Origin: an uncultured Pseudomonadales bacterium
GTDB lineage: Bacteria; Patescibacteriota; Microgenomatia; UBA1400; PJMF01
Length of the DNA: 64,000 nucleotides
Reading direction: 5' to 3'
Assembly (NCBI GenBank): GCA_964648715.1
Contig: CAZYNM010000001.1
Location: 16,040 to 80,039 of the forward strand
The notes under the pieces are model-generated. The model was not told the DNA's origin and did not search any database. It worked only from the letters and a program-made list of their open reading frames with translations. How positions within the stretch are numbered: the stretch's first letter is position 1; each line of letters opens with the position of its first letter. Shown in pieces: positions 910-64,000 of the stretch. The position numbers were made by a program, and so were the translations under genes.

Positions 910-3900
910 ATGACAGAAGCACATAATAACTCCGCAGCAGAAGTTGCACAACAATTAGCTCAAGAACTTTTAAAGCAAACTGGTGCGGCAGATGAACCAC
1001 AAGCTGATCCAATCGGAAAGAGCAAAGAAGTTAAAGATGCAGGTGCGCAACAAAAAGCTGAATTAATTCAGAATCGCATCCAGACTGGTGAGTTAATGAA
1101 TGATCTCCCTGGTACCGTAGCTCTTGCGCGTGAACCAGCTGTAGCGGCTCTTCTGAAAAAGATGCTGACGCCAGCCGACCATCAGACTATTACTGATTTG
1201 ATCCAACAGTTTGATGGAGCCCCAGCTGAAGAGCATAAAGATCCAACTGTGACATCAGCTCCCAGACCAGAGAAAACGAAACAGGTTGCTCCACCTTCTT
1301 CTCATGATGCAGCACCTCAGAATCATGAGAATGAACACGCTGATGATCAAGAAGAGGAAGAAGCAGAAGTTGAACGCATTGCCAGTCCTTTTGATCGTTT
1401 GGGACGTCGTGGCATGGTGCGCAGAATAAATGAAGCTATTGCTGCAGACGCTGCACACCAGGTTTTTGTTGATAGAAACATTGATGTTACGCGCACTCAC
1501 GCATACCAAATGAACGAAGCGTGGGACAATCGCGATAATCCTGAGATAATGGCGCAAATACTCACTGATGCTCTTGCAAACGCTCTCGACCTGCGTATTC
1601 CTCGTAATGTACGTGGTGCAGAGCGGGCAACACAAGCTGCTGAGAACTGGACGATTGCCACTCGCCTTGCTGAGCGCATTGTCAATATTGAAGCAAATCC
1701 AGAACCAAGACGCGGTGTGGCCGCACTCACTGAAGGGATTCGCAATAGAGTAGCTCGTGGTTTCCGTGGGGCACTAGATGCTCTTGGTAGATTCTATAAT
1801 CGCGCAGTAGAAGCAAATGCCGGCACTGTCCGCGGTGTAGACATTGTTCCAGTGGTCTCTCGTGATGTCCAGCGCGCTCAAGCCACTGCTCCAGAACGTG
1901 AGTTTACCCCAGAAGATAGAACACGATTTGAAGCATTTGTTGAACACATTAGAGATGAAAAAGTAAAGAAAAATGTTGCTACACAGTTACGCAAGCTTCG
2001 TACTGAAAATGCTATCCCTGTGGTTGATGAAAGTGATGCAGCTGCAGATGCTGTAGAGGCTCTCACTCCAGAACAAGTATCGCAACGCCAGCATGTACTC
2101 GACCTTATCTCAGATGCCTTTGCCTATCTCAAAGATCTAAACTTTGATCCCGATCTTGAAGATGAAGATATGGCTCTGGAAAATCCTGACGATATTCTTG
2201 CCCTGCTTGAAATTCTCAAGGAACTCAACATTACTATAGATAGTGCAAAAAAGAAAAAAAATGTACGAACTGTTGATGAGTTTATGCCTGTTGCACCTGT
2301 TGTGCCTGAGGACGATGCAGAAGAGCCCGCAGATGATGGCGCTCCAGAATCAGAAGATGATGCACCACAGAAGGAAAAAAAGCTTTCATTGTGGCAACGT
2401 ATGCAGTTTTGGAAGCGTGGTGAACGTGATGCGGACGCGTTTATGGATGGAGATAACGCAGCAGACTTGAATTATCTTCAAGCAGAGCTTAGTGAGGGAT
2501 TGAAGAAACTTCATCCAAAAGATAGAAACTATAAAACTAAGCGTGGTGCATACGTTCGTGCCATCGGTCTTTTAGCACAAGTACAAGCAGGTGAACTTGT
2601 TGAGGGCGATGATATCCCTCGTAATCACAAAGCTATTAATCAACTCAGAAAAGAGCTGAGCGTACTGGGTATAGCAAGTAGAGAAGCAGAAGCAGATGCT
2701 ATCACTACAGACACAGAAGCTCAAAAGAATGCTGAGAAAGCAGTTGATGGCTCAGATCTACCACCAAGCAAGAAACGATGGCTTAAAGATAAGCTCAAGG
2801 CTGGCTGGAATTGTGTAAAAAGTCCCGCATTCCTTCTGGGTGCAGCGACTGGTGTGGCCACGGATATTCTTCTCTATGTAACCGGTGCAGATCATACCTG
2901 GAAGAGGGGCGTATATGTTGCGGCTACAGCATTCCTTGCTGATGGTGCTATGAGTACTTATGTCAGAGCTAAGTTGGTTAGTGCCTCCAGTATGGGAGGA
3001 CCAGTGGGTCTGGGTGCCTATGGTTTATTCTGGGTGCTTGATAAAGGAGTTCAAATTGTAGGCCCGGGAAATGTAAGTAAGTTTGGCGCAGGGTTCTTTG
3101 GTGGCTATGAATTAGCGCATATTGGTCATCATGTCTACGATCAGTATTCAGCCACTGCTGCCACTCACACCGTTACAGCAGGTGAAGGTCAGACAGGCAC
3201 TGGTGCTGATTCAAAACACTCATCGCTTACAGGCGTTGAACCAGTTAAACCAGATCACGGTGAAAAACTCACCGATGATACCCCACCAAAGGCTAACGCT
3301 TCTGTTGATACTCATACAGTCGCTCCTGCAGCAGATGCTCCAAAGGTAGACACAACTGCCAACGTGCAGACTTCTGGTGAACAGCATCTGAGTGGTAATC
3401 CACTTACCGCACAACAAACAAACGTGCAAGCTTCTGGTGAACAGCACTTGAGTGGCAACCCTCTTGCACAAACACAAACGATAGTTGTAGATACTGAGAA
3501 ACTTCAAGATCAAGCACAGAATTGGGCACAGCAAATTGGTGCTTGGTGGAGAAATACTGTAACAAATGCTCAGCAAAATACTGGAGCACAACACCACAAT
3601 CAACAGGGAGAAACAAACCCAAATGCACAATTTATGGCTGATCTGAATCAAAAACGTGCAGGTGTAGATGTCACTGCAAATATTCACGATGGTAGTTCGG
3701 CAGCAGACTCTTCTGCTGACCACAGTAATCAGGGTTCAGACACGATGAATGACGCAGCTGGAAATACAGCTGGTGCCCACGGTGGTGTAGAAACAGGTGA
3801 TCTATCTCATGTTAAAGTCGTTACATTTGACAAACCATATATTTGGGAAGATGTAAAGGCAGTTACTGGAGACAACGGTGCAGTTACTGATGCTGTCAAA

Positions 3901-4878
3901 GATGCAACCGTCATGATGAATCACGCAGGCATGAGCACGCATGAATATCACCAAGGTGATCAAGTTGTTGTGATAGACTCCAACGTCCATACTGTCGCAG
4001 ATCTGCAAGCCTTGCACGCGAATCACCCAGAAGCACAGGGGTATGTCTTCTCTGACACTGCCATTGGGCGCATTGCTGAGTTTTACAAGCAAGCAGCACA
4101 AACACCTGCAGATCACAGAACGCCACTTCAAGAAGACGTGATGCGACATTTCACGGGAGGAACCTCTGGTGAAGAACTTGGTAAACATCCTGCTGCTGTT
4201 GAGGCACTCCTCAAGATTGCCAACGGAGAAACAGTGGATGGCAGTAAGCACATTATTGGTGGCGAGCATGTCGCCGACACCACTGTACATGCTACTACTG
4301 TATCTACTGCAGAAGCCCAACCAGTTGCGGAAGGTGGTGCAAAAGAACTTCTAGATGCTGCTATTGAACAGTACAAGCTGGATCTCAAGCACCCGCTAGC
4401 CGCTCAAGGCGTTATTGATCACTTCATGCATGAAGTCCCTAACAATACGGTTGATCATCCAGAACGGATTGCGCTCTTTGTTGATAACGTCTGGGGTAAA
4501 TGGGTGGATGCCTGTCACACGCTCAACCTGGACCCAATGAAAGCTAATCCAAAAATTGTGGACTATGTCGCCAATCCAGGATATCAAGGTAATGATCTGC
4601 TCACAGTCTCACCAGTACGTGCGGTTATGATTGAATATATCCAGCATGGAAATAGCATGAGTGAGCTTGGTATTACTCGTGGAGCAAATGAGCATACTTT
4701 TCTGAATCTAGATACGGTGCATGGTGTTCTGGCAAAAGTAGATGATAATCCGCTTATTGCCCAACTCATGGCAAACAACGGTGTAGATTCTGCGATTGGT
4801 CAACTCAATATAGAAGATATATTTGGCAATGACGCTGCCGACTATTATAAGAGAGTACAGAACAAGCAAGTACCGTAA
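910..4878 (+). CDS. giant hypothetical protein (1322 aa): acidic N-terminal region, central hydrophobic multi-helix segment, Thr/Gln-rich repeat region, unknown C-terminal domain
   Basis: Long uninterrupted ORF with coding-like composition; no signal peptide; hydrophobic block around aa 640-740 (AFLLGAATGVATDILLYV...GLGAYGLFWVL); in-frame 60-nt tandem repeat. Confidence 0.6.
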   Translation: MTEAHNNSAAEVAQQLAQELLKQTGAADEPQADPIGKSKEVKDAGAQQKAELIQNRIQTGELMNDLPGTVALAREPAVAALLKKMLTPADHQTITDLIQQFDGAPAEEHKDPTVTSAPRPEKTKQVAPPSSHDAAPQNHENEHADDQEEEEAEVERIASPFDRLGRRGMVRRINEAIAADAAHQVFVDRNIDVTRTHAYQMNEAWDNRDNPEIMAQILTDALANALDLRIPRNVRGAERATQAAENWTIATRLAERIVNIEANPEPRRGVAALTEGIRNRVARGFRGALDALGRFYNRAVEANAGTVRGVDIVPVVSRDVQRAQATAPEREFTPEDRTRFEAFVEHIRDEKVKKNVATQLRKLRTENAIPVVDESDAAADAVEALTPEQVSQRQHVLDLISDAFAYLKDLNFDPDLEDEDMALENPDDILALLEILKELNITIDSAKKKKNVRTVDEFMPVAPVVPEDDAEEPADDGAPESEDDAPQKEKKLSLWQRMQFWKRGERDADAFMDGDNAADLNYLQAELSEGLKKLHPKDRNYKTKRGAYVRAIGLLAQVQAGELVEGDDIPRNHKAINQLRKELSVLGIASREAEADAITTDTEAQKNAEKAVDGSDLPPSKKRWLKDKLKAGWNCVKSPAFLLGAATGVATDILLYVTGADHTWKRGVYVAATAFLADGAMSTYVRAKLVSASSMGGPVGLGAYGLFWVLDKGVQIVGPGNVSKFGAGFFGGYELAHIGHHVYDQYSATAATHTVTAGEGQTGTGADSKHSSLTGVEPVKPDHGEKLTDDTPPKANASVDTHTVAPAADAPKVDTTANVQTSGEQHLSGNPLTAQQTNVQASGEQHLSGNPLAQTQTIVVDTEKLQDQAQNWAQQIGAWWRNTVTNAQQNTGAQHHNQQGETNPNAQFMADLNQKRAGVDVTANIHDGSSAADSSADHSNQGSDTMNDAAGNTAGAHGGVETGDLSHVKVVTFDKPYIWEDVKAVTGDNGAVTDAVKDATVMMNHAGMSTHEYHQGDQVVVIDSNVHTVADLQALHANHPEAQGYVFSDTAIGRIAEFYKQAAQTPADHRTPLQEDVMRHFTGGTSGEELGKHPAAVEALLKIANGETVDGSKHIIGGEHVADTTVHATTVSTAEAQPVAEGGAKELLDAAIEQYKLDLKHPLAAQGVIDHFMHEVPNNTVDHPERIALFVDNVWGKWVDACHTLNLDPMKANPKIVDYVANPGYQGNDLLTVSPVRAVMIEYIQHGNSMSELGITRGANEHTFLNLDTVHGVLAKVDDNPLIAQLMANNGVDSAIGQLNIEDIFGNDAADYYKRVQNKQVP
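3361..3480 (+). repeat. 2 x 60-nt imperfect tandem direct repeat inside giant ORF (encodes NVQ(T/A)SGEQHLSGNPL...)
   Basis: aacgtgcagacttctggtgaacagcatctgagtggtaatcc... repeated as aacgtgcaagcttctggtgaacagcacttgagtggcaaccc... Confidence 0.8.
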
Positions 4879-5241: not shown

Positions 5242-7812
5242 ATGGCAGGTAATGAACAAGAACGGTCACAGGAAAACCATGCAAAATTACAACAGCTTGC
5301 ACGTCCAGTGCTTGAGTACTGTTTGGTTAGCGATGTCCGACTAACAAAAGAAAATGCACCCAAAGCGGTCTCAGCAACAAATGCACTTATTAAGGTAAGT
5401 ACCGAACTTTTTGCGCGTACTCCCGATACTGTCTCACTAAAAACTGCCGAGTACATAGCACAGGTACTGCAAGCAGTACAGTTCAAATTGTTAAGTGTTG
5501 GTCTTCGTACTGATGTTACTGATACAGGTATGGTGGGTTCTAGACCTGAGATTCGCCCTATTATACAGAAACGGAGTGCTGCTTCAGATCCACTTGCGGC
5601 AGCTTCAGAGGCTGGATTGAGAATTGTAGTGGAAAATTCTCATGCATCACCAGCACAGCTCAGAGATAACAGATCAGAACTTGTCGCTGTATACAACTAT
5701 TACGATCAAACGCGTTACCGTAGGCACGCTCAAAAACCTTATAGTGAACAAGAACTAACACAACAGGCTCGAGTGCTGACTGCAATGATTACTTCCCTCA
5801 TTAGTATGGGGAGGAACTTTTCACTTGAACTTAGAGGTGTAGACAACAAAGTGGCTAAACCTGCCCCAGAATTTTCCGGTGCAATGAGTTGGGAAAAAGC
5901 AAAAGGCGCTGTCGAGCTTATTCAATATGCTTCCTTGGAAGGAATGGAACCACTGCGTGATCACCTCAAGAAGTTTGGTGATCAGGAACAACATCAGTTT
6001 CACGATTTTTCTCTTGGCGCTCATGAAGCCGCTGTTATATATAACACGACTCATTATACTGAATTACCCATTTTTCCTGAGTGCCATGTCCAGTTTGATC
6101 CAAAGCTCCAGCGACTCGTTGAAGTAGGTGCGGCGCTCCATGATATTGGCAAAGTAGGTGCGGCAGAAGCAAATAGGCTTGGTTTAGATCCACAAAACAG
6201 AGGAAGAGAACCTAGACATACAGAAAATTCTGCACAGATTGTTGAAACACAGATCCTTAGTAAAATACCCTGGCTAACCGAAGAGGATAAGCAAAGAGTG
6301 TTGTTCCTGGTTAAGCACCATGACTGGCTTGGTGACTTGGGTTTTTATAAAAATGGAGACATCAGAAAGCAGCGGGAGGTCTTCAGAGAAAAGTCTTATG
6401 AGCAGCGCCTACATGAGCTGGTAAGCTCAGTGCGGGAGCCACAAGATCTAGCCTTGCTGTACCGACTAACCTTGTGTGATGTGGCAGGTATAAAAAAGGA
6501 CAATGCGCTGTTGACAAGAGAAGCGCAGCACTTGATTTATGCAGCCTACTGCGAAGCAGTTTCACTATGTCTGCAGAACCAAAGCCAAGAACAGAAACAA
6601 GCACCGATAAATCGCGAATTACAACAAGCTGAGAGTGCTTATTTTAGTCAACAAGCACGCATCGCACGGGGTGAGTCATTCATTGAAGCACAGGGAGGAA
6701 AGGCAGAGCATTCACTCTTTTCATATGCGTTGCCCACCCATCGCTGCTCCATAGATGCAGCAGTGGGTATCTTAAGTTCCGGTATGCTTGTATCGACACA
6801 AGACAGAGGAGTTAACTTCAAAGTTGCTGGCTTAGCTGCCGACTACGGTTGTATCACCTTTATAGGTAAAGGAAATGAAGTAGAGTTACTCCAACCTGAT
6901 GCTCCAAGCCCCTTTGATTACACCCAGAAATGGCAGAAGGGTCACAAACATGCATACAATGTCTTTGACTTAGCTGGTGTTGAAGGAACTTCAAAAGCAC
7001 GTGATTTTGGTGGACACGTAGCAGATATTCTCAAAGCAAAGCATGGTATTGATATCAACGACGAAACGCAGTACCCTCCCGCCAGTCGCACTAATCTTTT
7101 ACGTGAGCATTCTCAGTATTTAGTTGGTGATTGGGCAACCACGGCACAAGTTCCTGCGTGCGAAGGGCCTCAATTGAATGTAGGAATTCGAGCTTCAGAG
7201 AAAGCGTATTATCGCCCTCGTCTCGAATCTGCTGCTCAAAAAATGGGATGCACAGTGGACGACATTAAAGGTGCCGTGAGCACGGAATGTATTTGCGCCA
7301 TTATGGTTCCAGAGTTCTTGACCAAAGAGCCGGTTTATAACCGGTTGGCAGCACTAGCCAGTCAAAGAGGTGTAGATATTGTGATTTCACCGAGCGGTCA
7401 GACAGTGCTTGAGTACCTGGGCGACTCGCTCGCATATTTTTTAGATACAACCCGCTTTGTTCATCAGCCTATTCATAAGCTTGGGCCGTTGGTAGCGAAA
7501 GCCCTGGGAACGCAGTATGGAGTTAAGCTAACCTATCCAGGTGCTCAGACCTATGCAACTAGTACAGAAGGGCAAACATTCATGCAGTATGTGAAGCAGT
7601 ACCTCACGGAAAAGGGTCAATCAACTGATGCATTTGATGTTGTAAGACAGGGTATCGGGAAAAAACTGGTTCGTAGGAATATTTCCGGACAGTTCGCTAA
7701 TACCATGTGTCAAGAAGCGTATCAAGCTGAGCAAGCAACCTATTTTGGTTACAGCTCTAAGCGAGAACTAAAAGCTAAAAAAGCTGATATCAAAAGAAGG
7801 TATCAAGCTTAA
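5242..7812 (+). CDS. HD-domain (metal-dependent phosphohydrolase superfamily) protein, 856 aa, with large unknown N- and C-terminal regions
   Basis: Central motifs GAHEAAV...H, AALHDIGK (classic HD motif), VKHHDWLGDLG, LCDVAGI, consistent with the H..HD..H..D signature; stop overlaps next start (TAATG). Confidence 0.55.
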   Translation: MAGNEQERSQENHAKLQQLARPVLEYCLVSDVRLTKENAPKAVSATNALIKVSTELFARTPDTVSLKTAEYIAQVLQAVQFKLLSVGLRTDVTDTGMVGSRPEIRPIIQKRSAASDPLAAASEAGLRIVVENSHASPAQLRDNRSELVAVYNYYDQTRYRRHAQKPYSEQELTQQARVLTAMITSLISMGRNFSLELRGVDNKVAKPAPEFSGAMSWEKAKGAVELIQYASLEGMEPLRDHLKKFGDQEQHQFHDFSLGAHEAAVIYNTTHYTELPIFPECHVQFDPKLQRLVEVGAALHDIGKVGAAEANRLGLDPQNRGREPRHTENSAQIVETQILSKIPWLTEEDKQRVLFLVKHHDWLGDLGFYKNGDIRKQREVFREKSYEQRLHELVSSVREPQDLALLYRLTLCDVAGIKKDNALLTREAQHLIYAAYCEAVSLCLQNQSQEQKQAPINRELQQAESAYFSQQARIARGESFIEAQGGKAEHSLFSYALPTHRCSIDAAVGILSSGMLVSTQDRGVNFKVAGLAADYGCITFIGKGNEVELLQPDAPSPFDYTQKWQKGHKHAYNVFDLAGVEGTSKARDFGGHVADILKAKHGIDINDETQYPPASRTNLLREHSQYLVGDWATTAQVPACEGPQLNVGIRASEKAYYRPRLESAAQKMGCTVDDIKGAVSTECICAIMVPEFLTKEPVYNRLAALASQRGVDIVISPSGQTVLEYLGDSLAYFLDTTRFVHQPIHKLGPLVAKALGTQYGVKLTYPGAQTYATSTEGQTFMQYVKQYLTEKGQSTDAFDVVRQGIGKKLVRRNISGQFANTMCQEAYQAEQATYFGYSSKRELKAKKADIKRRYQA

Positions 7813-35375: not shown

Positions 35376-37715
35376 ATGCACTTTTTTCAGCAAGCAAAGG
35401 TACGAGAATGGGGTGGAATAACGCTTGTTTGTATTCTCTTGCTTTTCGCACGTTTTTATCCATTTATCTTAGGAAAAACACTGTTTTTTGGAGATAACTA
35501 TTCACTCATGGTCCCAGCTAAAGTATTTACTGCAACGGCAATTCGCGCTGGTGAAATGCCCTTTTGGAACCCGTACCTTTTTGGTGGTCTCAATTGGATT
35601 GGTGATATTAATTTTTCCACTGTTTATTTTTCAACTTTTTTCTTTGTGCTATTTGATACTGTTGCTGCATTTAATTTCACCATCGTCAGTCACTATGTAA
35701 TTACCTTTGTAGGTATGTATATACTTATGCGTACCTATCAGGACAGAATCGTTTCCTGTACGATAGCTGCATTGTGGATGTTCTCCACACAGTTTGCAGG
35801 AGCAACCAACAATCTCTCAACATTGCAATCAATGGCTTGGTTTCCATGGATTATATGGGCTGGTCTCAACGTTCATAGGACATATTTTAGGAAAATAACT
35901 TTTGGTTTGTTGGTGACACTCCAATTTTTGGCTGGATACCCACAACATGTAGTGTATGCAGTCCTTACTGTAGTTATACATAGTTTGCTTAGTAGCTCAC
36001 TTTCGTGGAAACGATGGCTGACAGGCTGGGTAGTAACGGGCATTGTTGTTGTTTCTATGGCAACCGTTGCATGGCTGCCTTTTGCCCAAGCACTCTTGCA
36101 GTCAACACGTATGGAACAAACAACAGTGCAAGCACAAACAGGATCTCTTCATCCTGTAATGATAGTAAAAGCTATTCTTTCGTATGCTTTTGATAATCCC
36201 AGCAAAGGGATAAAGTGGGGACCTGCTTGGAACGGGCAACCCAATATGGTTTGGAATATCAGTAGCATTGGGTTAGTAGTACTCATATTATCCCTGATGC
36301 AAGGAGGCCTGTGGCATAAGAAAGTGCGTGTTTTTGCAGGGATTGCACTGGTATCTCTTATCTTATCCTTTGGTGCCTATCTACCGGGGTATGAATATCT
36401 ACAAAAAGCAGTACCATTTTTGCGCATTGGTAGATACCCAAGTATGGTACTCATTGTGACACAGTTGTATCTTTTGCTGTGGCTAGGGAATGTGGTCCGT
36501 TCTGTACTGATGCCGCGCAGATTGGCGCACCTAGTTGGATGGGTGGCTGCTGTGAGCGCGTTTCTTGTTGGGCTACAGTGGCTATGGATTAAGCGTGCTC
36601 CCACGCAGTGGTGGTCAACTTTAAACGAAGTTGCTCAAGGAAGTCTCACGAAAAGTACATTCCACACACTGGCTCGTGATGTGCAGATTGCAAATATGAT
36701 TAGTGAAAATATTTTTGTTGTTGGATGTGTACTCTCACTTGGTATGTGGGCAGCATACAAAAAAAAGTTTTTTATTCTCTCTATGCTAATGATCTTTGAG
36801 TGCTGGTATAGCACGCAAGCGAACTTTCTTTTTGCTCCCTCTGAAATCTACCCATCCAGTAGAGAGCCAAGTGTGATTGTTCAGCAACAAGATGAAACAC
36901 TTTTTTCGAAACTATCAGAGACTCAGTACAGGGCACTAACAAGAGCTAGTAATAAACCATACAGTGATTTTGGCAGTTACTGGGAAGCACTGGTAGTGCG
37001 CGCCCCATTCTCTGATTCATTTGTTAACGAGAATGAATTACAAACATATACACGTCTCAAGAATCTACGTGATACATTTGCCCCCGATTGGCATCTGCGT
37101 TGGAACATTCGTTTTATTAATGGTTACACAGCGTTACTGCCCCAAGACTTTGCACATATTTGGCAGCGATCGTATGAGCAACCACGCATTAACTTTATTT
37201 CTTCGGTAGATCCTAACGATGGAGAACAACAACTACTACTCAAAAAATGGGCGGTAAAGTATTACCTGGTAGATTCTTCATATCCATTGTATGGTGAAGT
37301 ATTCACTTCACAACCAGTTGCTTCACAAGGTGCGTTACTCTTGTACGAAATTCCTGGAGCACTTCCTCGTTTTAGAGGCAGCGAACAACCTATTGAGCTC
37401 AAAGAAGTGCAAGAGAAAACATCTTCCCAAAGAGTGACTGTTGATTCCCCTCGTGCACAAGATCTCATCATTGCCGATCGGTATGATGAGCAGTGGGTGG
37501 GGAAAGTAAATGGAAGACCACAGCAAATTCATCTTAAAGACGGCATGCGAAGTATAGAGATTCCAGCCGGAAGTAGCACCGTTGAGTTGTCATTTGTGCC
37601 AGTCTGGTTTTATCGTGGCATATGGATCACTATGCTTAGTAGCATGGTTTGGTTAGTTGTGGGGGTGATTAGCACTCAGAAGTGGATAGTGCTTAACAGA
37701 ATGTTGGGTAAGTGA
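35376..37715 (+). CDS. large polytopic membrane protein, probable GT-C fold glycosyltransferase (YfhO/ArnT-like)
   Basis: 779 aa; ~12-14 predicted TM helices in the N-terminal 480 aa, then a ~280-aa soluble domain and a C-terminal TM; sits directly after a GtrB-like GT2. Confidence 0.4.
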   Translation: MHFFQQAKVREWGGITLVCILLLFARFYPFILGKTLFFGDNYSLMVPAKVFTATAIRAGEMPFWNPYLFGGLNWIGDINFSTVYFSTFFFVLFDTVAAFNFTIVSHYVITFVGMYILMRTYQDRIVSCTIAALWMFSTQFAGATNNLSTLQSMAWFPWIIWAGLNVHRTYFRKITFGLLVTLQFLAGYPQHVVYAVLTVVIHSLLSSSLSWKRWLTGWVVTGIVVVSMATVAWLPFAQALLQSTRMEQTTVQAQTGSLHPVMIVKAILSYAFDNPSKGIKWGPAWNGQPNMVWNISSIGLVVLILSLMQGGLWHKKVRVFAGIALVSLILSFGAYLPGYEYLQKAVPFLRIGRYPSMVLIVTQLYLLLWLGNVVRSVLMPRRLAHLVGWVAAVSAFLVGLQWLWIKRAPTQWWSTLNEVAQGSLTKSTFHTLARDVQIANMISENIFVVGCVLSLGMWAAYKKKFFILSMLMIFECWYSTQANFLFAPSEIYPSSREPSVIVQQQDETLFSKLSETQYRALTRASNKPYSDFGSYWEALVVRAPFSDSFVNENELQTYTRLKNLRDTFAPDWHLRWNIRFINGYTALLPQDFAHIWQRSYEQPRINFISSVDPNDGEQQLLLKKWAVKYYLVDSSYPLYGEVFTSQPVASQGALLLYEIPGALPRFRGSEQPIELKEVQEKTSSQRVTVDSPRAQDLIIADRYDEQWVGKVNGRPQQIHLKDGMRSIEIPAGSSTVELSFVPVWFYRGIWITMLSSMVWLVVGVISTQKWIVLNRMLGK

Positions 37716-49216: not shown

Positions 49217-49999
49217 ATGTTAGAAATAAAAAATCTACACGCCGCGTTTGAGCAGACTGCTATTCTTCGTGGAGTATCCTTGACTGTGGAACCTGGTTCA
49301 TTGCATGCCATTATGGGTCCAAATGGATCAGGCAAAAGTACCTTTGCCAGTGTGTTGGCTGGACATCCATTTTTTACAGTCACAGATCCCGAGAAACACA
49401 GCACCAGTATCTTACTTGATGGGTCAGATATCTTGGAAGCATCACCTGATGAGCGGTCACAAGCAGGACTCTTCCTTGCATTTCAATATCCAGTTGAAGT
49501 GCCCGGTGTATCGGTACAGAACTTCTTGAGGCAGGCACATAAAGCGCGCTTTGCTACAGAGCCAGACAAACAGTTTGCTCGTGCCTTGGACTTTTTTACC
49601 TACCTTAGAGAAACAGCAAACGAGTTTGGTATTAATGAGTCATTTCTTACTCGTGGGCTCAATGAAGGATTTAGTGGGGGAGAAAAAAAACAGTTGGAGA
49701 TTTTGCAGATGGCAGTGCTTGCACCTCGCTATGCCATTTTAGATGAAACAGATTCTGGTCTTGATATGGATGCTATCAAAAAAGTGTCAGTCAATGTCCA
49801 GAAAATACGCGCCAGAACCGGAATGGGTTGTATCTTGATCACGCATTACAACCGCATTCTAGAATACTTATCTCCATCAGCGGTTCACGTGATGGTGGCT
49901 GGTGCCATCGTACGATCTGGCGGTCCAGAACTCATCAAAACCCTTGAAGCAGAAGGGTATGCACCGTATAAGCACATGGTAGAGGAGTCACGCGCATGA
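49217..49999 (+). CDS. sufC: Fe-S cluster assembly ATPase SufC
   Basis: MLEIKNLHAAF..., Walker A GPNGSGKST, ABC signature FSGGEKKQLEI, Walker B ILDETDSGLD. Confidence 0.85.
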   Translation: MLEIKNLHAAFEQTAILRGVSLTVEPGSLHAIMGPNGSGKSTFASVLAGHPFFTVTDPEKHSTSILLDGSDILEASPDERSQAGLFLAFQYPVEVPGVSVQNFLRQAHKARFATEPDKQFARALDFFTYLRETANEFGINESFLTRGLNEGFSGGEKKQLEILQMAVLAPRYAILDETDSGLDMDAIKKVSVNVQKIRARTGMGCILITHYNRILEYLSPSAVHVMVAGAIVRSGGPELIKTLEAEGYAPYKHMVEESRA

Positions 50000-50492: not shown

Positions 50493-51917
50493 ATGGCTCG
50501 ATTTGCACAAAAGCACACAACTACTTTTGAAACAGCTCAAGATCACTATGAGCATGGGTATACATTCCCCACGAATCACTATGCACATATCACGAAGCCC
50601 GGTCTCAGCACACACGTAGTTGAGGAAATTTCTCACATCAAAGAAGAGCCAGCATGGATGCTCAAAGCTCGTCTCACTGCATACGAGCAATTTCTTGCCA
50701 AGCCTACGCCTACTTGGGGTGGAGATTTAAAGAATATTGATTACGATAAAATTCATTACTACCTGCGACCTACTGATGCACAAGCACACTCATGGAACGA
50801 TGTCCCTGCTGACGTCAAAGAAACGTTTGAACGTTTGGGTATCCCTCAGGCAGAACGAGCTGTGCTAGCAGGAGTTAAGGCTCAGTATGATAGTGAGGTT
50901 GTGTATGGTTCACTCAAAGAAGTATTTGCTAAAGACGGCGTTATATTCCTCTCCATGGATGATGGGTTGAAAGAGTATCCCGATCTTGTGAAGCAGTACT
51001 TTGGTACCGTTATTCCCAGCGGGGATAATAAGTTCTCGGCACTCAACACGGCAGCCTGGTCCGGTGGCTCATTTGTGTACATTCCCAAAGGAGTGCAGGT
51101 GAAACTGCCACTCCAGACTTACTTTAGAATTAACGCAGAAAATGCAGGTCAGTTTGAGCGCACGCTCATCATAGTTGATGAAGGGGCCAGTGTGCATTAC
51201 ATTGAAGGATGTACTGCACCTCAATTTTCTTCTGGTTCGCTCCACTCAGCAGTGGTGGAAATTGTAGTCAAAAAAGGTGCTCGTTGTCAGTACACCACTA
51301 TTCAAAATTGGTATAAAAATGTCTACAACTTGGTAACTAAGCGAGCGTTGGTGGAAGAAGACGCAAAAATGATCTGGACAGACTTTAATATGGGATCAAA
51401 ACTGACTATGAAGTACCCTGGCTTTATATTGGCAGGCAAAGGTGCTACTGGCGAAACGCTCAGTATGGCACTGGCTGGAGCTGGACAACATCAAGACACA
51501 GGATCAAAGGCTATTCACCTAGCTCCTTATACTAACTCTACCATTATTTCTAAATCTATTTCTAAAGATGGTGGACGCACCTCGTATCGTGGTTTGGTCA
51601 ACGTAGGTCCGCATGCTCACAACAGCAACAACACAGTGATCTGTGATGCGTTGCTACTTGATGATCATTCACGGTCGGATACGTACCCAGTAGATAGAAT
51701 TTTTAATTCACGTGTAGCAGTACAGCATGAAGCAACAGTCTCAAAAATAGGAGACGACCAGTTATTTTATTTGATGAGTAGAGGGGTGAGTGAAGAAGAT
51801 GCACGCAAGATGGTAGTACACGGTTTTATTGATGACCTTGTCAAGAAACTACCCTTTGAGTATGCGGTAGAAATGAACAGGCTGATTGATCATGAGATGG
51901 AAGGAAGTATCGGCTAA
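50493..51917 (+). CDS. sufB: Fe-S cluster assembly protein SufB
   Basis: 474 aa; SufB/SufD beta-helix core and C-terminal ...DDQLFYLMSRGVSEEDARKMVVHGFI. Confidence 0.85.
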   Translation: MARFAQKHTTTFETAQDHYEHGYTFPTNHYAHITKPGLSTHVVEEISHIKEEPAWMLKARLTAYEQFLAKPTPTWGGDLKNIDYDKIHYYLRPTDAQAHSWNDVPADVKETFERLGIPQAERAVLAGVKAQYDSEVVYGSLKEVFAKDGVIFLSMDDGLKEYPDLVKQYFGTVIPSGDNKFSALNTAAWSGGSFVYIPKGVQVKLPLQTYFRINAENAGQFERTLIIVDEGASVHYIEGCTAPQFSSGSLHSAVVEIVVKKGARCQYTTIQNWYKNVYNLVTKRALVEEDAKMIWTDFNMGSKLTMKYPGFILAGKGATGETLSMALAGAGQHQDTGSKAIHLAPYTNSTIISKSISKDGGRTSYRGLVNVGPHAHNSNNTVICDALLLDDHSRSDTYPVDRIFNSRVAVQHEATVSKIGDDQLFYLMSRGVSEEDARKMVVHGFIDDLVKKLPFEYAVEMNRLIDHEMEGSIG

Positions 51918-58647: not shown

Positions 58648-59913
58648 GTAATCTCTATTTTTGGCAATAGACCAGATTCCTGGAGGAACTGGAGGGAGTT
58701 TGTGTTGATTGTGTAACGCCGATCTGATCTCGCAGACATAGGAAAAAATTTCTTCATACGAATTGCCTGCCAACTCTAGTTGGGCTGCCAAGGTGCCGTG
58801 GTCACTTTTGGCTGGTTTGTGCATAGTGGATGGAATACGAATGGTTGTACTGGGTATAAGTTCTTTGAGTTCTTCAAGTTGAGCGTAGGTATGCATTTGA
58901 GTAGAAAAAATGTTTGCTTGACACACTGTGCAGTTTGCTTCATGAAAAGTGAATGCTGCAGAACCCAATGCAACGTCGATAATGGCCTTGCTAATATCAA
59001 AATCATAGGCGGTCTTGTAGAGAAAACGGAAGGTATATGCCGCCCGTGAATTAATTTCAATCAGCACTGGTTTACCTTCAATAATCCAGTACTCAACGTT
59101 AAAAAACGTGTGATCAAGACCAATAGTTTTTATATCACTGCATGTTTGTGCCAAGAGTGCCCCCTGCATAGGGGCAGGAAGCCTAGAAGGGGAACTAAAG
59201 TTGTCAAAAAGAGTGTAATCACCCATAGGAAAGTTGGTATCAGTGATGAAGAGTGGCGTCACATGCCCGGCTTGTACGTATCCTTCTACGGTCACTTGTG
59301 GTGCGTGAATAAGTGGCTCAATAGTCATGGCATCGATGCATGCTTCTGGATACCGTGTGGCCAGTGAAGTATGTTTGAGTACTTCGTATATGGGAGCATT
59401 TAAGACAGGTAACTTCTTGTGTAATTGTGGGAGTACTCTCTCTATATCAGCTGGCGTATGAGCTTCAAAGCCGAGAGTCCCAAAAGAAGAATAGGGTGCT
59501 TTTAGATAACAAGGGAGTTTTGCTTTGGGGAAAGTGTCCCAGATATTCCACAGTTCTGATGACACTGCACAGTGTGTTTTTACTTTGGTGAGCTGTTTAT
59601 GCAAAGCTAGAAAAATACTCTCTACCGATGATCCTGGCAGATGCAGTTGCTCATTGAGATACGCTGCAATTAATGATCCCAAATCATTTTCACTCACGAC
59701 TGCTGCAATACAGTGCTCTCGGCAGTATGAAAGGCAAAATGCAAGAAATTCTGCATCTGGATATGGGCTGGGACCAGTCGCTTCTACAGAAAAAGTAATG
59801 TGATGCAATGTGAGATGAGCAGAGCGTTTCTCCACAGCAATAGGAGGACGCCTAACGGTCCCAGTACTTTTTGCTATGCGAAGAAGTGAAGTCATGATGA
59901 GTGTCTGTCCCAT
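58639..59913 (-). CDS. ATP-grasp family ligase (unknown substrate)
   Basis: VEYWIIEGKPVLIEINSR (ATP-grasp E.N motif) and overall ~420-aa three-domain layout; start uncertain (Met at 59913 or 59895); the longer ORF to 60054 would overlap sufS. Confidence 0.5.
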   Translation of the reverse strand: MGQTLIMTSLLRIAKSTGTVRRPPIAVEKRSAHLTLHHITFSVEATGPSPYPDAEFLAFCLSYCREHCIAAVVSENDLGSLIAAYLNEQLHLPGSSVESIFLALHKQLTKVKTHCAVSSELWNIWDTFPKAKLPCYLKAPYSSFGTLGFEAHTPADIERVLPQLHKKLPVLNAPIYEVLKHTSLATRYPEACIDAMTIEPLIHAPQVTVEGYVQAGHVTPLFITDTNFPMGDYTLFDNFSSPSRLPAPMQGALLAQTCSDIKTIGLDHTFFNVEYWIIEGKPVLIEINSRAAYTFRFLYKTAYDFDISKAIIDVALGSAAFTFHEANCTVCQANIFSTQMHTYAQLEELKELIPSTTIRIPSTMHKPAKSDHGTLAAQLELAGNSYEEIFSYVCEIRSALHNQHKLPPVPPGIWSIAKNRDYLF

Positions 59914-59932
59914 TATACGGTACAATACAGAT

Positions 59933-61204
59933 ATGTTTGATTCGCATATAGTTCGGCGGGACTTTCCACTTTTTGCACAACCAGTCCACCAAGGTTTGGT
60001 GTATCTTGACAGTGCTGCTACTAGCCAGAAACCCCAGGTAGTCTTGGATGCCATTGCTGACTACTACCGTACTAGCACTGCCAACGTACACCGTGGTGTT
60101 CACACACTCTCGGATGCCAGCACGCATGTCTGGGAAGAAAGCAGGAAAACAATAGCCCATTTTTTTGGTGCTATGCCGCAAGAACTTATCATAACGCGGA
60201 ACACCACCGAGGCACTCAATGGTGTGGCGTACGGGTGGGGAGATGCGCATCTTAAACCTGGAGACGTAATCCTCACAACGTTACTAGAACATCACGCCAA
60301 TATTGTGCCATGGCAGCAACTATGTGCCCGCACTGGTGCAGAACTGGTATTTGTACCGGTTGTGCCACAGACAGGTAGGGTTGCCTGGGACACCTTTGAA
60401 GAACTGCTTAAGCAGTATGGTGCCCGTATACGGTTGGTTGCATGTACGCATGTTTCAAATACGCTGGGCACCCTGGTGCCTGTGGATAAATTGGTTGCAC
60501 TTGTTCGCGCAACGTGTAGTGGAGACAGTCCACGCATCTTGATTGATGGCGCACAAGCAGCTCCGCATATTCCGGTTAATTTCGATGCACTAGGCGTTGA
60601 TTTCTATGCCTTTAGTGGCCATAAGATGCTTGGTCCCATGGGCAGTGGAGGGCTGCTAGTACGGTCAAAGTTACTAGAGTCCGGAGAAATGCAGCCATGG
60701 TTTTTTGGTGGAGGAATGATTGCAGAAGTGCACACAACCGGTACCCAGCTCCATCCAGATCCACAAGAACGATTCACCGCAGGCACACCTGATGTGGCAA
60801 GTGCTGCAGGTCTAGCTGCAGCCTGCAACTATCTTACTGCTCTCGATATGAAAGAAGTTGCCAAACATGATGCCCAGTTGGTGACATATGCCACTCAGCA
60901 GTTACACGCAGCTCCTGGTGTGCAGCTAGTTGGTCCTTTGCCAACAGCGGCAGATAGTATTTTTGATCGCTGTGGGTCAGTGGCGTTTGTATATACAGGG
61001 GTCCATGCGCATGATGTTGCACAAGTACTTGATAGTGAAGGTATTGCGGTACGCAGTGGTCACCACTGCACCATGCCGCTTCATGAAGCATGTGGTTGGC
61101 AAGCAACGGTGCGTGCAAGCTTCTCTGTGTACACCACCACAGAAGATATTGATGCGCTCTGTGCAGGACTCAAGAAAGTAGCGCAGGTATTTGGTACGCC
61201 ATGA
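59933..61204 (+). CDS. sufS: cysteine desulfurase SufS
   Basis: VRRDFPLF...LVYLDSAATSQKP, PLP-Lys motif SGHKMLGPMGSGGL, catalytic region RSGHHC; start set at MFDSHIV. Confidence 0.85.
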   Translation: MFDSHIVRRDFPLFAQPVHQGLVYLDSAATSQKPQVVLDAIADYYRTSTANVHRGVHTLSDASTHVWEESRKTIAHFFGAMPQELIITRNTTEALNGVAYGWGDAHLKPGDVILTTLLEHHANIVPWQQLCARTGAELVFVPVVPQTGRVAWDTFEELLKQYGARIRLVACTHVSNTLGTLVPVDKLVALVRATCSGDSPRILIDGAQAAPHIPVNFDALGVDFYAFSGHKMLGPMGSGGLLVRSKLLESGEMQPWFFGGGMIAEVHTTGTQLHPDPQERFTAGTPDVASAAGLAAACNYLTALDMKEVAKHDAQLVTYATQQLHAAPGVQLVGPLPTAADSIFDRCGSVAFVYTGVHAHDVAQVLDSEGIAVRSGHHCTMPLHEACGWQATVRASFSVYTTTEDIDALCAGLKKVAQVFGTP

Positions 61205-61578
61205 CAGCAGATACACTCTATACCACTGATCTTTTAGAAGAGTATCGCGAGCCGCAAAACAAGGTGGTTCTGCCGGATGCTGACATGGTTCAAGCACAGT
61301 TTAACGCCAGCTGTGGTGATGACGTAACGGTGTATGTCAAACTCCAAAGCAACAAAACCCATATTGAAAAGGTTACTTGGCAGGGCAGTGGTTGTGTGAT
61401 TAGTCAGGTGACATTAAGTAAACTGAGTGCGTTTGTGGTAGGTAAAGAAGTGTCCGCAGTGCTTGAGCTAAAACAAACTGATTTGTTGAGCTTGCTTGGT
61501 ATGTCAGAAATTAGCTATGGTCGAGAGAAGTGCTTGCTGCTGGGACTGCGTGCTCTGCAGCAAGCTGTGGAGAAGTAG
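61201..61578 (+). CDS. sufU: SufU/IscU-like Fe-S scaffold / sulfur acceptor
   Basis: YREPQNKVVLPDAD...FNASCGDDVTVYVKL...GSGCVISQ...REKCLLLGLRAL (three conserved Cys). Confidence 0.75.
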   Translation: MTADTLYTTDLLEEYREPQNKVVLPDADMVQAQFNASCGDDVTVYVKLQSNKTHIEKVTWQGSGCVISQVTLSKLSAFVVGKEVSAVLELKQTDLLSLLGMSEISYGREKCLLLGLRALQQAVEK

Positions 61579-61630
61579 TCTTGATCGTGGTATAGTCAGC
61601 TTAATTTTCCTGAAAGAGGAGGTTTTGTCT

Positions 61631-64000
61631 ATGTCAAATTCTTCGCAATATGGACGAGTTTTTGATGAATTCACAAATCTATACCCTGTATCTAAAACAC
61701 TCCGTTTTGAACTTGTCCCTGATCCAGCCTCCCTTGAACACATGAAGACTAGATTTGGATATGATCCTGAAATTCAAGCTTTCTTGTGTGACAAAGAAAT
61801 TGAAGATGCATATCAAAGACTCAAACCAGTTTTAGATAAAATTCACGAGCAGTTTATTACTGAAAGTCTAACTTCCAATGACGTAAAGAAAATTGATTTT
61901 TCTGAATATTTTAAGACTTTTTTTGAAATAAAAGAGAGTAAAAAAGGTGATCTTAAAAAGGTAGAAAGTCAGCTCCGCAAACAAATTGGAGATGCTTTTG
62001 TTAGCACATCCATTGCTTGGAAGCCTAAAGCAGGTAATAACTCAAAAGGCAAACCAATTTTGAGTGACAATGGCTACAAAATTTTGACTGAAAAGGGAAT
62101 ACTCAAGTATATTGAAATTCATGCTGATGATTTTGTTGACATCCTTGATAAGGATACATTACTAAAGATATTGGAACAATTTAGTGACTTTTTCACATAT
62201 TTCTCAGGATTTAGCCAAAATAGAGAAAATTACTATACCACTAAAGACGAAAAGGAAACTGCGGTAGCTACGCGTATAGTTTCAGTGAATCTTCCTAAAT
62301 TTTGCGACAATATTGTAGCTTTTCAAGAAAGAACACAAGAATACCTCGAAATATCTAATTACTTAGAGAATATTGGTGTTAACTTAGTTGATCTACAAAA
62401 AAACAAATTAGAACCAGTTGCAAAGGAATTATTTGTAATAGAACATTTTTCGAATTGCTTATCTCAACAGGAAATAGATATTTATAACGAAAAAATAGGG
62501 AAAGTAAATTTACTTGTCAATTTGTACAATCAAAATAAAAAGAGTCAAAAGAATGAATTTAAGAAATTACCGCAGTTTAAAACACTGTATAAACAGATTG
62601 GATGTGGAAAGAGAAAAGTAACATTTGAGCAAATTACAGATTATTCTGAGAGAGAAGCTCAAGAAAAACGTGCTCAGAAGAAGCAAGCATTATCTGTTGA
62701 GGCTGTTTTGAACACAGTTGTAAATGCAGGAAATAAATATTTTAAAATACCATCTACAGATGGGATGGTGCATTCTGTCCTAGATTTTGTGAAGTATCTT
62801 AGAGAAGCAAATTCATATGAAGGAATTTATATAACAAAGACTGCACTTAATTCCATATCAGGAAAGTATTTTAATCAATGGGATGTACTACAAAAAGCTT
62901 TGGTTAAATCAGGTGTATTTGCTACAGACAAAAAATCAGAGGATGGATTTAGAATACCTGCAGCTATTGAACTTTCTGCTTTATTTGAAGTAATCAATAC
63001 AGTTGAGGATTGGAAAGTATCATTCTTTAAGCCTGCAGTATTGAAAGATTCAGTGAAAGCAAAGTTGATTGAATCAAGTGCATCTGCAGCAAGTGCATTG
63101 CTAGCATGTATTTTTTCAGATCTAGAGCAAGCAGTCTCAAAGTTTATTGAAAATCAAAGTGCCGTTCTAGAATCAGCTGACTTCAAAAGTGTTGAAAGAA
63201 AAGAGGTGATTAAGAATTGGCTAGATCAAATGCTTGTCATCAGCCAAATCGTTAAGTACTTCTCAGTTAAAGAAAAAGATGTAAAGGGTAAGTCACTTGA
63301 TCCATTAGTCGCAGAATTTATGAAAAACTTTTTTGAAGGTGATGCGCACTGGTCATCTTGGTATGACTTAATTCGCAATTTCATGACTAGAAAAGTGCAA
63401 GATAGAGCTAATGACAAGGCAAATAGAATGAAGTTGAACTTCGGAAATAGCACACTTGCCGATGGCTGGGATGTTAATAAAGAACCAAGTAATTATTGTG
63501 TTTTACTAAAGAATCCAAACGGAAAATACCATCTAGCTATAATTTCAAAATCAAATGGTAAACAAACGAATGCTAATACATTTGTAAAAAATAGCAAAAA
63601 CCCACTATACATTGTGAGAGATGTAAGCAATGTCTGGCAAAAAATGGAGTATAAACTTTTACCTGGCCCAAATAAAATGTTGCCTAAATGCTTATTACCA
63701 AAATCAAACATTAAAAAATATGGAGCGTCTAACGAAGTAATTGATATATATAATTCAGGTGCATTCAAAAAGAATGAGTCTAATTTTTCAATTAGTAAAC
63801 TTCATATCCTAATTGATTTCTATAAACAGGCAATAAGAAAATATACTGATTGGCAATGTTTTAACTTCAACTTTTTACACACAGAAAAATATACTGATAT
63901 TAGTGAGTTTTATCATGATGTTGAAAAGGCTGGTTACATAGTTAATTTTGTATCAATAAGTGGTGAGCACCTAAATAAGTTAGTTAATGAAGGAAAAATC
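61631..64000 (+). CDS. cas12a: CRISPR-associated endonuclease Cas12a (Cpf1), N-terminal ~790 aa; 3' partial, runs off the window
   Basis: RBS AAAGAGGAGG then ATG 61631; ORF open and in frame to nt 64000; translation contains Cas12a hallmarks: YPVSKTLRFELVP (N-terminal), FSGFSQNRENYYT, RIVSVNLPKFCDNI, MKLNFGNSTLADGWDVNKE (WED), YKLLPGPNKMLPK (PAM-interacting), FYHDVEKAGY...FVSISGEHLNKLVNEGKI; absent from the supplied ORF track because it has no in-window stop. Confidence 0.85.
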   Translation, partial: MSNSSQYGRVFDEFTNLYPVSKTLRFELVPDPASLEHMKTRFGYDPEIQAFLCDKEIEDAYQRLKPVLDKIHEQFITESLTSNDVKKIDFSEYFKTFFEIKESKKGDLKKVESQLRKQIGDAFVSTSIAWKPKAGNNSKGKPILSDNGYKILTEKGILKYIEIHADDFVDILDKDTLLKILEQFSDFFTYFSGFSQNRENYYTTKDEKETAVATRIVSVNLPKFCDNIVAFQERTQEYLEISNYLENIGVNLVDLQKNKLEPVAKELFVIEHFSNCLSQQEIDIYNEKIGKVNLLVNLYNQNKKSQKNEFKKLPQFKTLYKQIGCGKRKVTFEQITDYSEREAQEKRAQKKQALSVEAVLNTVVNAGNKYFKIPSTDGMVHSVLDFVKYLREANSYEGIYITKTALNSISGKYFNQWDVLQKALVKSGVFATDKKSEDGFRIPAAIELSALFEVINTVEDWKVSFFKPAVLKDSVKAKLIESSASAASALLACIFSDLEQAVSKFIENQSAVLESADFKSVERKEVIKNWLDQMLVISQIVKYFSVKEKDVKGKSLDPLVAEFMKNFFEGDAHWSSWYDLIRNFMTRKVQDRANDKANRMKLNFGNSTLADGWDVNKEPSNYCVLLKNPNGKYHLAIISKSNGKQTNANTFVKNSKNPLYIVRDVSNVWQKMEYKLLPGPNKMLPKCLLPKSNIKKYGASNEVIDIYNSGAFKKNESNFSISKLHILIDFYKQAIRKYTDWQCFNFNFLHTEKYTDISEFYHDVEKAGYIVNFVSISGEHLNKLVNEGKI

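Follow-up and report, generated by a model that had tools for sequence, protein, structure and literature searches.

This report concerns a stretch of 64,000 nucleotides from contig CAZYNM010000001.1 (assembly GCA_964648715.1), below called the window, and in particular the reading frame that runs off its end and very probably encodes the larger part of a Cas12a (Cpf1) effector protein. From the ATG at 61631-61633 the translation is free of stop codons up to nt 64000, which amounts to 790 codons, and the remaining two forward frames over the same stretch have 56 and 112 stops. With the local base composition, 8.4 % of random codons would be stops, and a run of 790 codons without one would arise by chance with a probability of about 7e-31. 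The start codon is preceded by a Shine-Dalgarno sequence (Table 1) and lies 52 nt after the end of sufU at 61578. An earlier first-pass annotation, made by a model from the letters alone, had described this start codon with a ribosome-binding site, the 790 residues lacking an in-window stop and the 52-nt distance from sufU, and the sequence bears out each of these points. It had also explained the absence of the gene from its track of open reading frames (ORFs) by the missing stop, correctly so, since ORFs crossing the edge are by definition not listed by the tool.

Identity of the gene

The six motifs by which the gene was originally recognised could all be located in the translation, in the order first described: KTLRFELVP at aa 22-30, FSGFSQNRENYY at aa 191-202, NLPKF at aa 220-224, MKLNFGNSTLADGWDVNKE at aa 600-618, YKLLPGPNKMLPK at aa 674-686 and FYHDVEKAGY...NEGK at aa 760-789. 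The part of Cas12a that lies in the window comprises WED-I, REC1, REC2, WED-II and PI together with the start of WED-III. Against the NCBI equivalog model TIGR04330 (cas_Cpf1), which has a cutoff of 300 bits, the 790-aa fragment scores 357 bits with an alignment spanning profile positions 1-734 of 1288. The Pfam profiles for REC1, REC2 and PI are likewise matched (Table 1), and the solved structures that match the fragment at E <= 0.001 are Cas12a/Cpf1 chains without exception (27 of 27), the best being the reconstructed ancestor ReChb (E = 1.3e-74), followed by the Lb2, Fn, Lb and As Cas12a enzymes. The initial call of a Cas12a protein, for which a profile comparison with the Cas12 families had been recommended, is upheld by these matches.

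The remainder of the protein can be read from P0001, a 1315-aa protein encoded on a 149,645-bp contig of a public NCBI assembly, which is 100 % identical to the fragment over all 790 residues and is the full-length product of the window gene. P0001 reaches 729.8 bits on TIGR04330 and adds the Pfam domains RuvC_1 (aa 890-1273) and NUC (aa 1090-1242), giving five Cas12a Pfam domains in total. Beyond the window it contains WED-III, RuvC-I/II/III, the bridge helix (BH) and Nuc, so that the RuvC and Nuc domains which had been predicted to lie past nt 64000 are indeed present, and in the alignment its C-terminal 525 residues are colinear with those of FnCas12a and ReChb. The fragment and P0001 show the domain order WED-REC1-REC2-WED-PI-WED-RuvC-BH-RuvC-Nuc-RuvC. 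The catalytic residues, which lie past the window end and are taken here from P0001, are found in the motifs IGIDRGE (RuvC-I, D906), VLEDLN (RuvC-II, E1007), GDANGAY (RuvC-III, D1253) and FDSR (Nuc, R1242), which align with IDRGE, FEDLN, DANGAY and FDSR of Fn. Across 111 full-length relatives aligned with MAFFT, these columns hold D in 111/111, E in 111/111, D in 110/111 and R in 109/111 sequences. An early stop, a lack of RuvC and Nuc domains or an assignment to a non-Cas family, any of which had been named as speaking against a Cas12a gene, was seen neither in P0001 nor with the profiles.

Comparison with the reference enzymes FnCas12a, LbCas12a and AsCas12a (PDB 5NFV, 5XUS and 5B43) and with the ancestor ReChb (8QWD) gives an alignment from end to end, the C-terminal half matching Fn at E = 1e-75, in which the RuvC D/E/D residues, the Nuc arginine, the bridge-helix region, the WED lysine and the LKL motif are conserved. 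The overall identity to these enzymes is, however, low.

Cas12a2 is an RNA-targeting relative that acts in abortive infection and has a C-terminal half unlike that of Cas12a. As the window holds the N-terminal 60 % only, the gene might in principle encode this or another Cas12 subtype sharing the N-terminal half, and P0001 does give a weak secondary NCBIfam match to Cas12e/CasX. This match (62.8 bits, cutoff 200) is far under the threshold and involves the shared RuvC core only. The alignment of P0001 with FnCas12a and ReChb passes through the bridge helix, RuvC-II/III and Nuc, the score on the Cas12a equivalog model is high, and the structure matches at E <= 0.001 include neither a Cas12a2 chain nor any other non-Cas12a chain. 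A Cas12a2 identity was accordingly rejected, and the chance of another subtype is in our view negligible.

Overall, we put at roughly 0.93 the probability that the window ORF is the 5' 60 % of an intact-looking chromosomal cas12a gene encoding the type V-A effector of a bacterium of the Patescibacteria, also known as the Candidate Phyla Radiation (CPR). The Cas12a identity taken by itself is, as judged by sequence comparison, highly probable.

Table 1. Features of the cas12a gene and its surroundings, in window positions (aa, residues of the Cas12a protein)
Feature	Position	Strand	Basis or remark
cas12a (cpf1), codons 1-790 of 1315, cut by window end	61631-64000	+	Open frame, TIGR04330, identity to P0001
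Shine-Dalgarno AAAGAGGAGG	61613-61622	+	8-nt spacer to ATG; direct read of sequence
REC1 domain, aa 62-323	61814-62599	+	Pfam PF18501, E = 3.2e-36, full profile 1-250
REC2 domain, aa 380-550	62768-63280	+	Pfam PF21918, 29.2 bits, cutoff 27
WED-II motif MKLNFGNSTLADGWDVNKE	63428-63484	+	Contains K617 (GWDVNKE)
LKL motif LLPGPNKMLPK	63650-63688	+	Begins just before PI domain
PI domain, aa 678-769	63662-63937	+	Pfam PF22222, E = 6e-31, profile 1-91 of 91
Promoter-like TGGAGA, 17-nt spacer, TATAGT with TG extension	61568-61596	+	Weak consensus match only; overlaps sufU stop codon
sufU/NifU_N scaffold gene	61201-61578	+	Pfam PF01592, E = 5.3e-18; context only
sufS-type class-V aminotransferase (cysteine desulfurase family)	59876-61204	+	Pfam PF00266, E = 1.6e-118; context only
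ORF of 471 aa	58639-60054	-	No Pfam match; between short sufD-like ORF and sufS
Short SufBD-core ORF, 163 aa	58156-58647		C-terminal half of SufBD core only
sufB	50493-51917		Window
sufC	49217-49999		Window

Relatives and the locus downstream

The nearest relative of the protein is P0002 (1362 aa), with 70 % identity over the fragment, which is encoded at three loci (L001-L003) in the Logan assemblies SRR14271343, SRR14271353 and SRR14271340. The gene order is the same as in the window from a block of response-regulator and kinase genes through cas12a. P0002 differs in carrying some 50 additional residues among its first 840, in the unrelated spacer between sufU and cas12a, and in that the genes downstream are visible: after cas12a come cas4, cas1 and cas2 and, about 200 nt further on, a repeat array. 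This array consists of four repeats with a period of 63 nt (14367-14590 in L002, equal to 8232-8455 in L003). Two of the repeats are intact (TTGATAATTAGTTCCACATTTCTACTTTTGTAGAT) and end in the canonical handle ATTTCTACTTTTGTAGAT, which is the same CRISPR RNA (crRNA) handle as that of the reference enzymes. In the third repeat the stem is lost (TCTTTATTCTTGTAGAT), and the fourth carries a compensatory double change by which the stem is kept (CCTAC...GTAGG). Both cas4-cas1-cas2 and an array with the handle TCTACT-N-GTAGAT had been predicted to lie past nt 64000, and the relative shows them.

For a broader comparison, 69 further Cas12a loci from species-representative genomes were added to L001-L003, making 72 in all. 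The genes cas4, cas1 and cas2 are all present in 56 of the 72, and arrays with repeats ending in TCTAC-N4-GTAGAT and a period of 61-64 nt occur in nearly all of the 69. The array characteristic of type V-A loci, with repeats of about 36 nt that end in the stem-loop UCUAC-N3-5-GUAGAU and with no tracrRNA, was seen in the syntenic relative and in about 55 of the related loci. From these loci it seems probable that a complete type V-A locus follows the window gene. The earlier suggestion of an unusual locus architecture does not hold, since the relative shows the standard type V-A layout. On the source contig, the stop codon of cas12a would fall near window nt 65578, cas4-cas1-cas2 and a short array would be expected within about 3 kb after this position, and the repeats are predicted to end in TCTACTTTTGTAGAT.

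The residues likely to read the protospacer adjacent motif (PAM) lie within the window. K617 is invariant in an alignment of 30 sequences of the clade and is K in 80 of the 111 relatives; we take it to correspond to As K548 and Fn K613, the WED lysine contacting the PAM. In the LKL motif, K682, M683, P685 and K686 are the counterparts of Fn K667, M668, P670 and K671, and the position of K686 is occupied by K in 77/111 relatives. Roles of the LKL residues of Cas12a in PAM reading and unwinding have been described (bioRxiv 10.1101/122648). By analogy, the protein would bind a crRNA of about 42-44 nt, the 5' handle of which (AUUUCUACUUUUGUAGAU) would fold into the Cas12a pseudoknot. A T-rich 5' PAM would be read through the WED lysine K617 and K682/K686 of the LKL motif, and after formation of an R-loop both DNA strands would be cut by the single RuvC site, with immunity against phage and plasmid DNA as the expected outcome.

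Within the family the protein belongs to a Cas12a clade typical of CPR bacteria, which includes sequences from Ryanbacteria, Gracilibacteria, Paceibacter, Magasanikbacteria and Taylorbacteria. The closest of these (L004-L016) have 44-51 % identity, and PeCpf1 (PeCas12a) from Candidatus Peregrinibacteria bacterium GW2011_GWA2_33_10 (L047) has 46 %, in each case over the best tblastn segment. The clade and the window lineage share the domain order, a short histidine-less loop between FYR and RF in WED-III, cas4-cas1-cas2 downstream and repeats ending in ATTTCTACTTTTGTAGAT. What distinguishes the window lineage is its Microgenomates-like host (as judged from GroEL), the insertion after sufU and the very small array. 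The protein had been described as clearly divergent, and this is true in so far as it has 70 % identity to its nearest relative and about 50 % or less to the rest; it falls, however, within a large and already sampled CPR clade, to which PeCpf1 also belongs. PeCpf1 and the Roizmanbacteria systems cited in PMC7757703 are known examples of type V-A systems from CPR bacteria, and according to the same source the metagenomic diversity of Cas12a has been extensively mined. The gene thus represents one more uncharacterised ortholog in a family of hundreds, the protein sequence of which is already public. Its use in practice would not go beyond the mining of orthologs, to which it contributes an enzyme of 1315 aa that probably reads a T-rich PAM.

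Six of the related loci (L007, L008, L009, L012, L018 and L061; 33-49 % identity over the best tblastn segment) come from metagenome-assembled genomes labelled 'uncultured Gammaproteobacteria' or 'Bdellovibrionales'. Five of the six have the CPR-type short loop, and L012 has a long loop that also lacks histidine. Either the automated bin labels are unreliable, or CPR-type Cas12a has moved to other phyla.

The WED-III loop, crRNA processing and immune function

Self-processing by way of one histidine and two lysines (H/K/K) is the textbook trait of the Cas12a family as a whole. In FnCas12a, according to PMC11127173 and 10.1101/122648, the WED-III residues H843 (acid), K852 and K869 (base) bring about the cleavage of the precursor crRNA (pre-crRNA). 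The corresponding segment of P0001, from AEIFYR to RF, spans 31 aa and contains no histidine, as compared to 44-48 aa in the canonical-type sequences examined. The 'ITHP' of Fn falls in a gap with respect to P0001 in the HMMER alignment, such that the H843 segment is deleted, and TIGR04330 aligns with P0001 in two stretches that skip approximately profile positions 786-844. The equivalent of Fn K869 is K860, but no more than 55 of the 111 relatives share this lysine, and the equivalent of Fn K852 is ambiguous. The H843/K852/K869 site is hence not found in P0001. The same state is seen in the published PeCpf1, so the RNase triad does not define membership in Cas12a.

The lack of histidine is a property of the clade rather than of this one protein, the loop being without it in 89 of the 111 full-length relatives. 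In an alignment of the 30 closest sequences, no column between A841 and R863 is invariant (region of P0001 aa 840-865). When the genome loci are classed by loop length and presence of histidine, 41 have a short histidine-less loop, PeCpf1 among them, and 19 have a long histidine-bearing loop, with one more that is cut off in the alignment. The repeat base at position -19, which lies just 3' of the canonical scissile phosphate and becomes the first nucleotide of the mature crRNA, is A in 17/17 histidine-bearing loci, as opposed to A in 16, G in 13, T in 2 and C in 1 of 32 short-loop loci, and A-19 is thus, in contrast to the reference systems, unconserved in the clade repeats (raw Fisher p = 2.5e-4 for loop type against base, a value that ignores phylogeny). 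What the repeats of the short-loop loci conserve instead is a T-A-T element, 9-7 nt before the stem. Some of these loci possess sizeable arrays, with as many as 60 repeats (e.g. L048, L005 and L019), and crRNAs must therefore be made in some manner.

Maturation in the histidine-less clade through another catalytic arrangement, at another site or by a host RNase is a tentative explanation suggested by these sequence patterns, and one to which we would give less than even odds. If true, it would contradict family-wide H/K/K self-processing. A major natural branch of Cas12a seems to be without the processing histidine, which bears on array-based multiplexing with orthologs of this kind and on the evolution of crRNA maturation in type V-A systems. 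A histidine-less RNase site of Cas12a was not mentioned in the literature searched for it. The enzyme called 'PbCas12a' in the papers found there is presumably from Prevotella and not from Parcubacteria. Since the observation concerns the whole clade and a region past the window end, it should be regarded as a lead and not as a finding.

Several points weigh against the view that the window gene serves as the effector of a functional type V-A system. The array of the relative, the only one visible in the lineage, is tiny and decaying, with two of its four repeats mutated, and its three spacers have no exact 20-nt match in the viral contig collection. Repeats bearing the handle are absent from the 64-kb window according to tandem-repeat and pattern searches, and we infer the adaptation genes and array of the window genome from the syntenic relative and from the family. 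Without the RNase histidine, crRNA maturation may differ from that of FnCas12a. The PAM preference, the length of the crRNA and the cleavage activity are predicted from conserved residues, and present-day immune activity of the lineage is putative.

The state of the array, the lack of viral matches, the missing array in the window and the missing histidine would also fit a Cas12a homologue without immune function, that is, an orphan or domesticated protein used, for example, in gene regulation or kept without a working array. Such a protein would hardly be expected to retain the intact RuvC D/E/D residues and Nuc arginine, which are invariant or nearly so among the relatives, nor intact cas4, cas1 and cas2 genes as in P0002's loci. 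Further, Cas12a is conserved to the same degree as the housekeeping neighbours, the compensatory change in the fourth repeat argues for selection on crRNA structure, and the short loop is shared with loci that possess arrays of dozens of repeats. We consequently regard loss of the immune function as highly improbable and retain the interpretation of the gene as a type V-A effector.

Genomic setting and host

The cas12a gene was originally placed directly downstream of the suf operon. It does begin a short distance after sufU, but the suf genes are not contiguous: about 6 kb and a minus-strand gene intervene, and L001 shows this interrupted arrangement as well. The block of about 6 kb after sufB contains three response regulators, a PAS histidine kinase, an NTP-transferase and a family-2 glycosyltransferase. 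The order common to the window and the relative is response regulator, nucleotidyl-transferase, glycosyltransferase, response regulator, PAS histidine kinase, response regulator, short SufBD-core ORF, minus-strand gene of unknown function, sufS, sufU and cas12a. Identities between the two genomes are 70 % for Cas12a, 62 % for SufS, 48 % for SufU and 47-81 % for the other neighbours. That Cas12a lies within the range of its neighbours indicates that the island was in place before the lineages split and has been under purifying selection.

The composition of the gene sets it apart from its surroundings. The G+C (GC) content of cas12a is 32 %, the window mean is 43.6 % and each upstream 2-kb bin is at 39-49 %. 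Values for the relative are 32-35 % GC from cas12a to cas2 and 41-45 % in the flanks. The low GC content in both genomes marks the cas genes as a compositional island, one that was acquired horizontally and had entered the site behind sufU by the time the two known carrier lineages separated.

The proximity of cas12a to sufU raises the question of a functional coupling to the suf genes, e.g. by co-regulation within a single operon, given the requirement of Cas4 for a 4Fe-4S cluster. Cas4 proteins are Fe-S cluster proteins, a structure resembling a terminator was sought between sufU and cas12a and none was found in the 52-nt gap, and the order sufS-sufU-cas12a is kept in the relative in spite of the low SufU identity. 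Yet no suf gene occurs within 10 kb in any of the 69 other Cas12a loci (0/69), the GC content changes sharply at the start of cas12a as for an inserted island, and the intergenic sequence between sufU and cas12a shows no conservation between window and relative. CPR genomes are moreover small and gene-dense, and defence islands in them necessarily abut housekeeping genes. A coupling is therefore very unlikely, and the adjacency is probably a lineage-specific insertion accident in a compact genome, positional and not functional. The position next to sufU, which had been called unusual, is indeed specific to the lineage, but there is no sign that it carries functional meaning.

Transcription of cas12a may start from the weak promoter-like site at the sufU end of the gap or may result from read-through from sufSU. 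Promoter-like sites are found in the region at the chance level (2 against 2.8 expected), so this site is no evidence of function.

Concerning the neighbouring genes themselves, the 471-aa minus-strand ORF is conserved at the same position in L001-L002 (47 % identity). The longest ORF for sufS reaches into the 5' part of this gene, and the frame listed for one or the other is therefore probably too long at its start. The true start of sufS is probably near 59933, as the alignment to the relative begins at residue 20.

The window represents ordinary chromosome, with genes for GroEL, FtsH, DnaK and PNPase, sufC and sufB, and two tRNAs. The best named relatives of its GroEL are from Candidatus Woesebacteria (83 %), Pacebacteria (80 %) and 'Patescibacteria group', which identifies the host as a CPR bacterium similar to Woesebacteria or Pacebacteria.

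The pattern TCTACT-N4-GTAGAT, with up to 2 mismatches allowed, has six scattered matches in the window as compared to 4.6 expected, and these were dismissed as chance occurrences. Three large plus-strand ORFs of 1322, 856 and 779 aa (910-4878, 5242-7812 and 35376-37715) match no Pfam family at E <= 1e-5. Within the 1322-aa ORF lies the sole match reported by Tandem Repeats Finder, a 60-nt repeat in two copies (80 % match) at 3361-3479, which probably encodes a repeated peptide segment.

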